Below the pieces are notes generated by a model that saw nothing but the letters and a program-made list of their open reading frames with translations, was not told the origin of the DNA and ran no database searches. Shown in pieces: positions 61,312-64,000 of a stretch of DNA of 64,000 nucleotides. This DNA comes from Escherichia coli (lineage in GTDB: Bacteria > Pseudomonadota > Gammaproteobacteria > Enterobacterales > Enterobacteriaceae), in assembly GCF_003334765.1 (NCBI RefSeq), contig NZ_QOWT01000021.1. The stretch is one strand, 5' to 3'. The stretch's first letter is position 1, and the number at the start of each line of letters is the position of its first letter. A program made the translations under genes and the position numbers.

Positions 61312-64000
61312 ATGAGCGGAAAACCAGCGGCGCGTCAGGGAGATATGACTCAGTATGGCGGTCCCATTGTCCAGGGTTCGGCAGGTGTAAGAATTGGCGC
61401 GCCCACCGGCGTGGCGTGCTCGGTGTGTCCGGGCGGGATGACTTCGGGCAACCCGGTAAATCCGCTGCTGGGGGCGAAGGTGCTGCCCGGCGAGACGGAC
61501 CTTGCGCTGCCCGGCCCGCTGCCGTTCATTCTCTCCCGCACCTACAGCAGCTACCGGACGAAGACGCCTGCACCGGTGGGCGTTTTCGGCCCCGGCTGGA
61601 AAGCGCCTTCTGATATCCGCTTACAGCTACGTGATGACGGACTGATACTCAACGACAACGGCGGGCGGAGCATTCACTTTGAGCCGCTGCTGCCGGGGGA
61701 GGCGGTGTACAGCCGCAGTGAGTCAATGTGGCTGGTGCGCGGTGGTAAGGCAGCACAGCCGGACGGCCATACGCTGGCGCGGCTGTGGGGGGCGCTGCCG
61801 CCGGATATCCGGTTAAGCCCGCATCTTTACCTGGCGACCAACAGCGCACAGGGGCCGTGGTGGATACTGGGGTGGTCTGAGCGGGTGCCGGGTGCTGAGG
61901 ACGTACTGCCAGCGCCGCTGCCGCCGTACCGGGTGCTTACCGGGATGGCGGACCGCTTCGGGCGGACGCTGACGTACCGGCGTGAGGCCGCCGGTGACCT
62001 GGCCGGGGAAATCACCGGCGTGACGGACGGTGCCGGGCGGGAGTTCCGTCTGGTGCTGACCACGCAGGCGCAGCGTGCGGAAGAGGCCCGCACCTCTTCG
62101 CTATCTTCTTCTGACAGTTCCCGCCCTCTCTCAGCCTCAGCGTTCCCCGACACACTGCCCGGTACCGAATACGGCCCCGACAGGGGTATCCGCCTTTCGG
62201 CGGTGTGGCTGATGCACGACCCGGCATACCCGGAGAGCCTGCCCGCTGCGCCACTGGTGCGGTACACGTATACGGAAGCCGGTGAACTGCTGGCGGTATA
62301 TGACCGCAGCAATACGCAGGTGCGCGCTTTCACGTATGACGCGCAGCACCCGGGCCGGATGGTGGCGCACCGTTACGCGGGAAGGCCGGAGATGCGCTAC
62401 CGCTACGACGATACGGGGCGGGTGGTGGAGCAACTGAACCCGGCAGGGTTAAGCTACCGCTATCTTTATGAGCAGGACCGCATCACCGTCACCGACAGCC
62501 TGAACCGGCGTGAGGTGCTGCATACAGAAGGCGGGGCCGGGCTGAAACGGGTGGTGAAAAAAGAACTGGCGGACGGCAGCGTCACGCGCAGCGGGTATGA
62601 CGCGGCAGGAAGGCTCACGGCGCAGACGGACGCGGCGGGACGGAGGACAGAGTACGGTCTGAATGTGGTGTCCGGCGATATCACGGACATCACCACACCG
62701 GACGGGCGGGAGACGAAATTTTACTATAACGACGGGAACCAGCTGACGGCGGTGGTGTCCCCGGACGGGCTGGAGAGCCGCCGGGAATATGATGAACCGG
62801 GCAGGCTGGTATCGGAGACATCGCGCAGCGGGGAGACAGTACGCTACCGCTACGATGACGCGCACAGTGAGTTACCGGCGACGACAACGGATGCGACGGG
62901 CAGCACCCGGCAGATGACCTGGAGCCGCTACGGGCAGTTGCTGGCGTTCACCGACTGCTCGGGCTACCAGACCCGTTATGAATACGACCGCTTCGGCCAG
63001 ATGACGGCGGTCCACCGCGAGGAAGGCATCAGCCTTTACCGCCGCTATGACAACCGTGGCCGGTTAACCTCGGTGAAAGACGCACAGGGCCGTGAAACGC
63101 GGTATGAATACAACGCCGCAGGCGACCTGACTGCCGTTATCACCCCGGACGGCAACCGGAGCGAGACACAGTACGATGCGTGGGGAAAGGCGGTCAGCAC
63201 CACGCAGGGCGGGCTGACGCGCAGTATGGAGTACGATGCTGCCGGACGTGTCATCAGCCTGACCAACGAGAACGGCAGCCACAGCGTCTTCAGTTACGAT
63301 GCGCTGGACCGGCTGGTACAGCAGGGCGGCTTTGACGGGCGGACGCAACGTTATCATTATGACCTGACCGGAAAACTCACACAGAGTGAGGATGAGGGAC
63401 TTGTCATCCTCTGGTACTACGATGAATCGGACCGTATCACTCACCGCACGGTGAACGGCGAACCGGCAGAGCAGTGGCAGTATGATGGCCACGGCTGGCT
63501 GACAGACATCAGCCACCTGAGCGAAGGCCACCGTGTTGCCGTCCACTATGGCTATGACGATAAAGGCCGCCTGACCGGCGAATGCCAGACGGTGGAGAAC
63601 CCGGAGACGGGGGAACTGCTGTGGCAGCATGAGACGAAACACGCATACAACGAGCAGGGGCTGGCAAACCGCGTCACGCCGGACAGCCTGCCGCCGGTGG
63701 AGTGGCTGACGTATGGCAGCGGTTACCTGGCGGGAATGAAGCTGGGCGGGACGCCGCTGGTCGAGTATACGCGGGACAGGCTGCACCGTGAGACGGTGCG
63801 CAGCTTCGGCAGCATGGCAGGCAGTAATGCCGCATACGAACTGACCAGCACATACACCCCCGCAGGCCAGTTACAGAGCCAGCACCTGAACAGCCTGGTA
63901 TATGACCGTGACTACGGGTGGAGTGACAACGGCGACCTGGTGCGCATCAGCGGCCCGCGACAGACGCGGGAATACGGCTACAGCGCCACGGGCAGGCTGG
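61312..64000 (+). CDS. rhsD: Rhs-family YD-repeat protein RhsD (N-terminal 896 codons only; 3' end outside window)
   Basis: Uninterrupted frame from ATG 61312 to window end (absent from ORF track because no stop is reached); MSGKPAARQGDMTQYGGPIVQGSAGVRIGAPTGVACSVCPGG.. PAAR-like N-terminus, then many YD repeats (RYRYDDTGRV, GYDAAGRL, EYDEPGRL, RYEYDRFGQ..); GC rises abruptly after an AT-rich 430-bp leader. Confidence 0.95.
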   Translation, partial: MSGKPAARQGDMTQYGGPIVQGSAGVRIGAPTGVACSVCPGGMTSGNPVNPLLGAKVLPGETDLALPGPLPFILSRTYSSYRTKTPAPVGVFGPGWKAPSDIRLQLRDDGLILNDNGGRSIHFEPLLPGEAVYSRSESMWLVRGGKAAQPDGHTLARLWGALPPDIRLSPHLYLATNSAQGPWWILGWSERVPGAEDVLPAPLPPYRVLTGMADRFGRTLTYRREAAGDLAGEITGVTDGAGREFRLVLTTQAQRAEEARTSSLSSSDSSRPLSASAFPDTLPGTEYGPDRGIRLSAVWLMHDPAYPESLPAAPLVRYTYTEAGELLAVYDRSNTQVRAFTYDAQHPGRMVAHRYAGRPEMRYRYDDTGRVVEQLNPAGLSYRYLYEQDRITVTDSLNRREVLHTEGGAGLKRVVKKELADGSVTRSGYDAAGRLTAQTDAAGRRTEYGLNVVSGDITDITTPDGRETKFYYNDGNQLTAVVSPDGLESRREYDEPGRLVSETSRSGETVRYRYDDAHSELPATTTDATGSTRQMTWSRYGQLLAFTDCSGYQTRYEYDRFGQMTAVHREEGISLYRRYDNRGRLTSVKDAQGRETRYEYNAAGDLTAVITPDGNRSETQYDAWGKAVSTTQGGLTRSMEYDAAGRVISLTNENGSHSVFSYDALDRLVQQGGFDGRTQRYHYDLTGKLTQSEDEGLVILWYYDESDRITHRTVNGEPAEQWQYDGHGWLTDISHLSEGHRVAVHYGYDDKGRLTGECQTVENPETGELLWQHETKHAYNEQGLANRVTPDSLPPVEWLTYGSGYLAGMKLGGTPLVEYTRDRLHRETVRSFGSMAGSNAAYELTSTYTPAGQLQSQHLNSLVYDRDYGWSDNGDLVRISGPRQTREYGYSATGRL

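Follow-up and report, generated by a model that had tools for sequence, protein, structure and literature searches.

The rhsD island of Escherichia coli K-12: architecture, predicted chemistry and displacement of a toxin tip

Described relatives of the rhsD locus

The closest described counterpart of the gene that opens at the right-hand end of the window (the entire 64,000-nucleotide stretch of Escherichia coli DNA analysed here) is rhsD of E. coli K-12, which has the same sequence and the same flanks (ybbA–ybbP upstream, ybbC downstream); the sole difference is the truncation of the window copy at codon 896. This gene is one of the Rhs (rearrangement hot spot) elements, a group known in K-12 since the 1980s–90s. 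The locus is already known, and the sequence-only reading that had recognised it as an Rhs element was correct but ordinary: among the accessory genes of the most thoroughly studied bacterium, this one is textbook material.

The best solved relative of RhsD is Tse5 of Pseudomonas aeruginosa (PA2684, RhsP1; PDB 8cp6), which matches with an E value of 7e-122. Both proteins possess a PAAR-like N-terminal fragment of ~47 residues with the cleavage-site context X47/P48-V-N-P-x-L-G, a DUF6531 plug (residues 48–124 in Tse5 and 46–123 in RhsD), a YD cage, a DPxG...DPxG autoprotease, a tip of ~15 kDa, and an N-terminus that lacks a transmembrane module. In Tse5, the N-terminal fragment is cleaved at K47/P48. 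It has been called a PAAR-like domain needed for secretion, DUF6531 forms the N-terminal plug of the structure, and a preference for action from the periplasm has been proposed for the toxin (PMC10684867). The two proteins differ in the spacing of the autoprotease motif (x19 in Tse5 vs. x18 in RhsD), in residue 47 (Lys vs. Asn), and in the tip, which is a pore-forming toxin in Tse5 but has a predicted JAB fold in RhsD. Moreover, Tse5 depends for its secretion on VgrG1c and a functional H1-T6SS, whereas RhsD has no linked vgrG and K-12 is not known to have a T6SS.

RhsA of Pseudomonas protegens (PDB 7q97) and the class I prePAAR Rhs effectors share with RhsD the cage, the plug, the C-terminal aspartyl autoprotease, and the N-terminal cleavage before a proline, which is predicted for RhsD. 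However, the N-terminal region of RhsA (304 residues) comprises a prePAAR motif, transmembrane helices, and a complete PAAR domain, and RhsA depends on an Eag chaperone, all of which RhsD lacks.

K-12 itself encodes a paralogous pair, RhsB–YhhH. The DUF4329 tip of RhsB is 53% identical to that of RhsD and has the same six cysteines and the same HTH...S..D motif; YhhH is 56% identical to YbbC, with an N-terminal hydrophobic segment that ends in a cysteine. The first 47 residues of RhsB and RhsD are nearly identical, whereas their cores, which belong to different Rhs subfamilies, are only 77% identical, and the chromosomal site of RhsB (nikR–yhhJ) is unlike that of rhsD. The divergence between the two tips is probably large enough for each to have its own immunity specificity.

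The rhsD gene and its genomic island

The following features were located at the end of the window:

58467..60881, + strand: ybbP, ABC transporter permease of 804 aa, a conserved backbone gene of the left flank that lies outside the Rhs element (open reading frame list; MG1655 annotation)
60888..61311, + strand: AT-rich (GC 0.28) 5' leader of rhsD and left end of the Rhs island (empty-site comparison; GC)
60895..60922, + strand: putative terminator-like hairpin (11-bp stem, T-rich tail) located 14 nt past the ybbP stop, immediately within the island boundary (consensus scan only)
61312..64000, + strand: rhsD coding sequence, codons 1–896 of 1426 (translation; identity to MG1655; NF041261 RHS_core)
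61312..61452, + strand: N-terminal fragment, aa 1–47, a PAAR-like stub ending at N47/P48 (Pfam PAAR_motif E = 0.2; Tse5 alignment)
61447..61680, + strand: DUF6531 domain, aa 46–123, the predicted N-terminal plug of the Rhs cage (Pfam PF20148, E = 4e-18)
62269..63579, + strand: densest RHS/YD repeats, aa 320–756, the predicted wall of the beta-cage (Pfam RHS_repeat; TIGR01643; motif count; cage homology)

An ATG at 61312–61314 opens a frame that continues without a stop codon up to position 64000. A stop-free run of this length (896 codons) has a chance probability of 6e-12 at the base frequencies of the frame itself, and its GC content (0.62–0.70) is the highest in the whole window. Over positions 60000–64000, the window shows 100% identity to the MG1655 genome of E. 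coli K-12; the corresponding genes are annotated there as ybbP and 'rhs element protein RhsD'. Between positions 51000 and 64000, there is one mismatch to the MG1655 record in 13001 bases. The long, uninterrupted, GC-rich frame noticed from the letters is thereby identified as rhsD. In MG1655, the gene is intact and encodes 1426 aa (b0497, WP_000014739.1), of which the window holds aa 1–896, i.e., the first 63%.

Degraded pieces in the vicinity of the gene (an orphan core fragment, a split ybbD, and a ylbG remnant) would be in keeping with a decaying pseudogene, but rhsD itself is a single frame of 1426 codons with intact autoprotease and JAB catalytic residues. Followed past position 64000 in the MG1655 record, the frame encounters neither a stop codon nor a frameshift, and the protein matches the 1261-position RHS_core equivalog model end to end (NF041261; 2787.7 bits at a cutoff of 2000; RhsD aa 1–1258 vs. 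model positions 1–1261). Because the open frame is complete, decay is refuted for K-12, and its probability is negligible.

The family assignment is corroborated by matches to TIGR01643, TIGR03696, and the Pfam families DUF6531, RHS_repeat, and RHS (the Pfam search of full-length RhsD was run in four pieces), and by relatives in the PDB, which comprise not only Tse5 but also P. protegens RhsA (E = 6e-86), Tse15, Salmonella bongori Rhs, and Tre23. The density of YD repeats, which had been read from the translation, is borne out by nine Pfam RHS_repeat matches at E <= 0.001 within aa 365–678 (weaker ones extend from aa 209 to 896), by seven TIGR01643 stretches (E = 1.8e-47), and by ten YDxxG(R)-like motifs vs. 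0.3 +/- 0.6 in 1000 shuffles.

The N-terminus had been called PAAR-like, which holds for a stub of 47 residues with the letters P-A-A-R at aa 5–8 but not for a full PAAR domain. The Pfam PAAR_motif (PF05488) aligns only with aa 3–20, at positions 52–69 of the 70-position model, and the match is not significant (E = 0.2); PAAR proteins in the PDB match only aa 2–29, via their last ~27 residues (E = 0.12–0.64). The end of the stub is indicated by Tse5, whose shell chain starts with PVNPMLGSK and aligns with PVNPLLGAK from aa 48 of RhsD.

The gene is preceded by an AT-rich leader, whose size (430 bp between the ybbP stop and the rhsD ATG, 60882–61311) and GC content (0.28) agree with the initial description; it is, however, part of an inserted island rather than a conserved intergenic region. 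In a comparison with Seattle 1946, a genome with an empty site, homology breaks off at window position 60887 and resumes at L001 17177, which delimits an island of 7288 bp that extends from 60888 to virtual window position 68175; in the empty site, ybbP directly adjoins mnmH. Among 5426 complete E. coli genomes, 5420 have ybbP; the leader lies beside it in 2878 and is otherwise absent; in about 2540 genomes, homology stops just past the ybbP stop, and about half of the genomes are without the island. A promoter scan of the leader returned two sites vs. 1.8 expected from shuffles, so that no promoter can be claimed, and an Rfam scan of positions 56000–64000 had no matches at E <= 1. By annotation, the rest of the window consists of core housekeeping genes apart from tomB–hha and ybaQ, which makes it plausible that the Rhs locus is its only accessory-type locus, as had been supposed.

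Taken as a whole, the window very probably ends in the start of rhsD as the gene of a T6SS-type polymorphic toxin, located where an accessory island of 7.3 kb between ybbP and mnmH has its left end. In the proposed architecture, the 47-residue PAAR-like stub would be followed by the DUF6531 plug, ~1100 residues of YD repeats that would form a closed beta-cage, and a C-terminal plug. The aspartyl autoprotease (DPxGx18DPxG) would cut after PLQQIDPMGL and leave a tip of 168 residues loose inside the cage. The homologues Tse5 and P. protegens RhsA suggest encapsulation, autoproteolysis, and VgrG/T6SS-dependent delivery. K-12 presumably has no T6SS and therefore no means of deploying the toxin. Neither vgrG, hcp, an Eag chaperone, nor other T6SS genes are annotated across the 64-kb window and the 8 kb that follow it. 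The strain has also been treated as lacking a competition system (PMC10761095), so that delivery in K-12 is unsupported. A literature search turned up no experiments with RhsD, its tip, or YbbC.

The toxin tip and its predicted immunity gene

The toxin tip and the immunity gene, which the sequence-only reading had placed beyond position 64000, are hidden by the window edge but can be read from the public K-12 genome. They were taken from the identical MG1655 record, as were all other features past 64000, and are given at virtual window positions:

virtual 65056–65085: core/tip junction PLQQIDPMGL, aa 1249–1258 (motif in the MG1655 record)
virtual 65086–65589: C-terminal tip of 168 aa (DUF4329/Tox-JAB-2)
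virtual 65632–66000: ybbC, predicted Imm-NTF2-2 immunity gene, 39 nt 3' of rhsD (PF15631)

The junction corresponds to the PxxxxDPxGL pattern that had been expected downstream. It coincides with the end of the Rhs-associated core domain (TIGR03696, aa 1181–1258) and of the autoprotease motif, which reads DPMGx18DPMG (aa 1232–1257). Comparison with toxin and immunity families assigns the tip to DUF4329 (PF14220; E = 8.1e-37, aa ~1292–1411) and YbbC to Imm-NTF2-2 (PF15631; E = 6.8e-26). The GC content of the tip (0.365) and of ybbC (0.306) contrasts with that of the core (0.633). The pairing of Tox-JAB-2 with Imm-NTF2-2 was listed by Zhang et al. 2012 (PMC3482391); it recurs not only in rhsB–yhhH of K-12, at the tip and immunity identities given above (53% and 56%), but also in Rahnella. 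The product of ybbC is thus predicted to be the immunity protein of the RhsD tip.

A word-indexed homologue search with the tip returned only 12 close matches, all from E. coli. Three Logan-derived 'homologs' (P0002–P0004) were dropped; they differ from RhsD only by changes of the C-to-T type and resemble bisulfite-converted or damaged reads.

Because a PDB sequence search with the tip alone gave no match at E <= 1, its fold was approached through a predicted model, which adopts a JAB/JAMM fold of the deaminase-like alpha+beta kind and retains the conserved residues E, H[ST]H, S, and D. In the literature, DUF4329 is labelled a nuclease or RNase, which would imply a cytoplasmic target; the RNase label reportedly goes back to Ma et al. 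2017. A tip of this kind would leave the rest of the Rhs reading unchanged, but it appears unlikely. The label is itself a prediction, and a 2024 preprint calls the activity and substrate of DUF4329 'still unknown'. A signal-like N-terminus is present in 92 of 103 full-length representatives of Imm-NTF2-2 (89%), as called by a hydrophobicity heuristic rather than a trained predictor, and an exported protein is encoded by the next gene at all three distant DUF4329 loci. Furthermore, the tips of RhsD and RhsB have six aligned cysteines in common, and the N-terminus of RhsD has no transmembrane translocation module.

The JAB/JAMM model and the export signals of the immunity relatives together point to a periplasm-acting metallo-hydrolase rather than an RNase, for a tip that lies outside the window. 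This reading of DUF4329 goes beyond the literature. In its most specific form, the tip would be a JAMM-type zinc hydrolase, stabilised by disulfides and active in the periplasm of the target cell, where an exported, probably lipidated YbbC would neutralise it, and the short-N-terminus chassis of Tse5 and RhsD would be specialised for extracytoplasmic toxins; we infer this tentatively, as a proposal that could well prove wrong. A candidate substrate would be an isopeptide-type linkage in the envelope, for instance in peptidoglycan cross-links or between Lpp and peptidoglycan. If so, the widely copied 'RNase' label of DUF4329 Rhs tips may be wrong on both compartment and chemistry. About one in three E. 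coli genomes carries such a tip, as do, reportedly, >150 Salmonella serotypes, and a bench test would be inexpensive.

The export signal also bears on the possibility that the locus of K-12 serves as an internal module resembling a toxin–antitoxin system, in which a promoter in the conserved 3' core expresses only the tip and ybbC. There is a precedent in Salmonella, where internal promoters raise the transcription of rhs-CT and immunity genes up to about 100-fold over that of the delivery part, and where these genes act as a type II toxin–antitoxin module (PMC7043789), and the absence of a known delivery system from K-12 would fit. However, an immunity protein with an export signal would not encounter a toxin that stays in the cytoplasm. 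In addition, about 1900 genomes retain the full delivery part of 4.3 kb in an intact and almost identical form, a pattern that speaks for selection acting on the protein as a whole. An internal module of this kind is considered improbable, and a T6SS-type polymorphic toxin remains the preferred reading.

A role in anti-phage defence by abortive infection is more doubtful still and can be regarded as very improbable. Although rhsD::Tn mutants were mildly enriched (log ratio 0.5–1.0) in every phage screen of a transposon study, the authors regarded the enrichment as background because it was present in all screens regardless of the phage (PMC7414163). A PADLOC scan had no matches for RhsD, YbbC, or the orphan proteins, and the anti-phage reading was therefore rejected.

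Tip displacement at the ybbP locus

Downstream of ybbC, the island of K-12 contains an orphan tip with a weak serum-amyloid-A-like match and a broken ybbD. Among the 5426 genomes, the DUF4329 tip with ybbC is present in 1896 and the orphan-type tip in 2863. The locus occurs in three states: the site is empty in about 2540 genomes, the main gene bears the old tip in about 970, and the new tip is accompanied by the orphan in about 1900.

The state with the old tip is represented by O157-type strains (21B8, WP_000014801.1; 'RhsD' z0651 of EDL933), which have the gene at the same ybbP site and behind the same leader, with a core that is 95.5% identical to that of K-12 at the DNA level. In strain 21B8, the serum-amyloid-A-like tip that is a displaced orphan in K-12 sits on the full-length gene, and the DUF4329–ybbC cassette is absent. 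Moreover, a core segment of 212 bp in 21B8 matches both copies in K-12.

These genome comparisons document a tip displacement at the ybbP locus. In this reading, the DUF4329–ybbC cassette entered the 3' end of the core by recombination and thereby displaced the older tip, which persists as the orphan together with the broken ybbD. The locus provides a clean, if modestly useful, example of Rhs tip displacement at the population scale.

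Identity and architecture of rhsD

The uninterrupted GC-rich frame that the sequence-only reading placed at position 61312 and assigned to rhsD was borne out on both counts. An ATG with AAAAGGG just upstream opens a frame of 896 codons that runs through the final base of the window; its GC content (62–70%) is the highest in the 64-kb window, and the probability of encountering no stop over this length, given the frame's own base composition, is about 6e-12. Positions 60000–64000 match E. coli K-12 MG1655, along with many other strains, at 100% identity, and the annotation of this stretch gives ybbP and then 'rhs element protein RhsD'. 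Since the overlap with the MG1655 record also contains only one mismatch over 13 kb, sequence identity assigns the window to K-12 or a strain almost identical to it, and the gene to rhsD. Both this gene and its family are already known, and the genome is the best annotated of any bacterium.

In the MG1655 record, rhsD forms one intact frame of 1426 codons, and residues 1–1258 match the NCBI curated 'RHS element core protein' model from end to end (2788 bits; cutoff 2000), which excludes a stop codon or frameshift past position 64000 or a loss of the core motifs, the signs of decay named in the sequence-only reading. The intact frame rules out a pseudogene in K-12. As that reading expected, the junction of core and toxin tip (PLQQIDPMGL, residues 1249–1258), the tip itself and the immunity gene ybbC all lie beyond 64000. 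The dense YD repeats are also present: nine Pfam RHS_repeat matches have E values of at most 0.001, weaker ones extend from residue 209 to the window edge, TIGR01643 matches seven stretches, and there are 10 instances of the YDxxG(R)-type pattern, compared with 0.3 ± 0.6 in shuffled sequences. The N-terminus comprises two features:

Residues 1–47: PAAR-like stub, with a literal PAAR at residues 5–8
Residues 46–123: DUF6531 (Pfam, E = 4e-18)

The Pfam PAAR model aligns residues 3–20 to the final 18 of its 70 positions (E = 0.2), and the C-terminal ~27 residues of solved PAAR proteins align to residues 2–29 (E = 0.12–0.64). The N-terminus is thus PAAR-like, as first read, but it is a 47-residue stub of the Tse5 type and not a PAAR domain.

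Tse5 of P. aeruginosa is the best solved relative of the YD-repeat cage (E = 7e-122), and the start of its 'shell' chain (PVNPMLGSK) aligns exactly at residue 48 of RhsD (PVNPLLGAK). Tse5 cleaves itself at K47|P48, its DUF6531 forms the N-terminal plug of the cage, and an aspartyl protease in the C-terminal plug (DPxGx19DPxG) frees the toxin inside the cage, a step essential for killing (PMC10684867). RhsD follows the same plan but with a different spacing (DPMGx18DPMG, residues 1232–1257). By contrast, RhsA of P. protegens has a prePAAR motif, transmembrane helices and a full PAAR domain, all of which are absent from RhsD.

Proposed deployment

By homology, RhsD would fold as a closed YD cage, from which the aspartyl protease would cut off the tip, with a second cut probably at N47|P48. 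[quoted passage not shown] A literature search found no experimental papers on RhsD, its tip or YbbC. K-12 is not known to carry a T6SS cluster. Neither vgrG nor T6SS genes are present in the 64-kb window or the following 8 kb, and MG1655 serves as a target strain free of competition systems (PMC10761095); therefore, rhsD in K-12 is probably an intact weapon that cannot be deployed. Many other strains carry the same allele, and some of them may possess a T6SS.

It is improbable that an internal promoter gives the locus a toxin-antitoxin-like role of the kind described in Salmonella. An anti-phage role is more improbable still: rhsD::Tn was mildly enriched (log ratio 0.5–1.0) in every screen of a transposon-sequencing study of phage receptors, which lists RhsD among membrane proteins, but its authors dismiss the uniform enrichment as background (PMC7414163), and PADLOC lends the role no support.

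Proposed site of action of the tip

The 168-residue tip matches DUF4329 (E = 8e-37), a family named Tox-JAB-2 by Zhang et al. (2012) and paired by them with an immunity protein of 'Imm-NTF2 family 2' (PMC3482391). The gene 39 nt downstream of rhsD, ybbC, encodes such a protein (Imm-NTF2-2, E = 7e-26). K-12 has a paralogous pair, rhsB-yhhH, with 53% identity between the tips and 56% between the immunity proteins.

The location of a T6SS immunity protein follows the site of action of its toxin. YbbC begins with a lipoprotein-like signal (MKYSSIFSMLSFFILFAC|N), and YhhH also has a hydrophobic N-terminus, diverged and with a cysteine at its end. Signal-like hydrophobic N-termini are present in 92 of the 103 full-length Imm-NTF2-2 proteins (89%) among the best 150 of 260 relatives from an exhaustive search, a count that relies on a hydrophobicity heuristic and may include distant relatives that are not immunity proteins. 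At three distant DUF4329 loci (Rahnella, Verrucomicrobia and a MAG), the gene directly downstream encodes an exported protein, even if it is not NTF2-2. Six cysteines align between the two E. coli tips, and two of these (C1317 and C1345 in RhsD) are more widely conserved. A transmembrane module, which is absent from the Tse5-type chassis, is thought to convey the toxins of other Rhs proteins to the cytosol, and preferential action from the periplasmic side has been proposed for Tse5 (PMC10684867).

Together, immunity signals, exported neighbours, cysteines and chassis point to an action outside the cytoplasm, contrary to the literature, which repeatedly labels DUF4329 Rhs tips as nuclease or RNase; a 2024 preprint calls their activity 'still unknown'. 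A cytoplasmic nuclease is less likely, and the same four lines of evidence speak against it; the tip may have RadC-like nuclease chemistry. Because the immunity proteins appear to be exported and their location tracks that of the toxin, our best guess is that the tip is a candidate periplasm-acting zinc hydrolase. This reading is the only part of the analysis with some research value, and it concerns sequence outside the window.

Nearly all the differences between the tip and three Logan-derived homologs (P0002, P0003 and P0004) are H→Y, S→F, P→L, A→V and T→I replacements, each of which corresponds to a C-to-T change in the DNA. Rather than natural variants, these homologs appear to be assembled from E. 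coli reads that were bisulfite-converted or deaminated, and they were set aside.

The rhsD island and its displaced tip

Between the end of ybbP (60881) and rhsD lie 430 bp with 28% GC (60882–61311). The extent and AT-richness of this leader stood as first described, but it belongs to an inserted island and is not conserved intergenic DNA: it adjoins ybbP in 2878 of 5426 complete genomes (population search), and in the others similarity ends 5–10 bp beyond the ybbP stop. In the empty-site strain Seattle 1946, mnmH follows 140 bp after ybbP. In an alignment to this strain, the left junction falls at window 60887/60888 and the right one at 17176/17177 of the MG1655 record (L001), so that an island of 7288 bp stands in place of a 127-bp spacer. 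That spacer (L003:6507-6633) contains sequences that by eye resemble repetitive extragenic palindromes (REPs), such as GCCTGATGCGCTACGCTTATCAGGCCTAC; the insertion may therefore have landed in a REP cluster or removed one. The sole terminator-like hairpin after ybbP (window 60895–60922) lies inside the island boundary, so ybbP may be terminated by island DNA in island-bearing strains.

The DUF4329 tip and ybbC are present at ≥99% identity in 1896 genomes. A second tip, an orphan that lies further downstream in K-12, occurs together with ybbD in 2863 genomes, a count close to that of the island itself. Strain 21B8 lacks the DUF4329 cassette and carries the orphan tip on the full-length gene; 212 bp from the 3' end of its core can be aligned with each of the two K-12 copies. 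The orphan core fragment of K-12 begins one base past the stop codon of ybbC and shares 83% identity with the end of the main core, and ybbD, the presumed immunity gene, is broken into pieces of 86 and 57 codons. Judged from these alignments, the locus is a classic case of Rhs tip displacement, in which a cassette of core end, tip and immunity gene recombined into the core and shifted the old tip downstream.

L001:15003-16182 (virtual window 66002-67181, past the window edge): orphan Rhs module downstream of ybbC, consisting of a copy of the core's last 252 bp, the tip and the split ybbD, in this order

The orphan tip has a weak match to serum amyloid A (Pfam, E = 0.0012), and the first piece of ybbD has a transmembrane-like N-terminus. 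Rahnella has the same orphan trio with an intact YbbD_head protein of 158 aa. In Rahnella sp. PD12R (GCA_019200965.1), the DUF4329/Imm-NTF2-2 pair is followed by an orphan Rhs tip and a series of additional genes of immunity type, namely Imm58, DUF6258 and small ORFs without a name (L005:1165-3591), which together resemble a poly-immunity/orphan array.

Apart from the Rhs locus, just two items in this window of core genes look mildly accessory. One is ybaQ (46269–46610), whose annotation is that of a HigA-family antitoxin and next to which no toxin gene is annotated; the other is tomB-hha (18141–18759), which marks the kilobase with the lowest GC content (0.40). Between ybaT and cueR (51950–52047; L001:951-1048), the RefSeq annotation shows a fragment of a 'hypothetical protein' that is frameshifted and truncated at its N-terminus.
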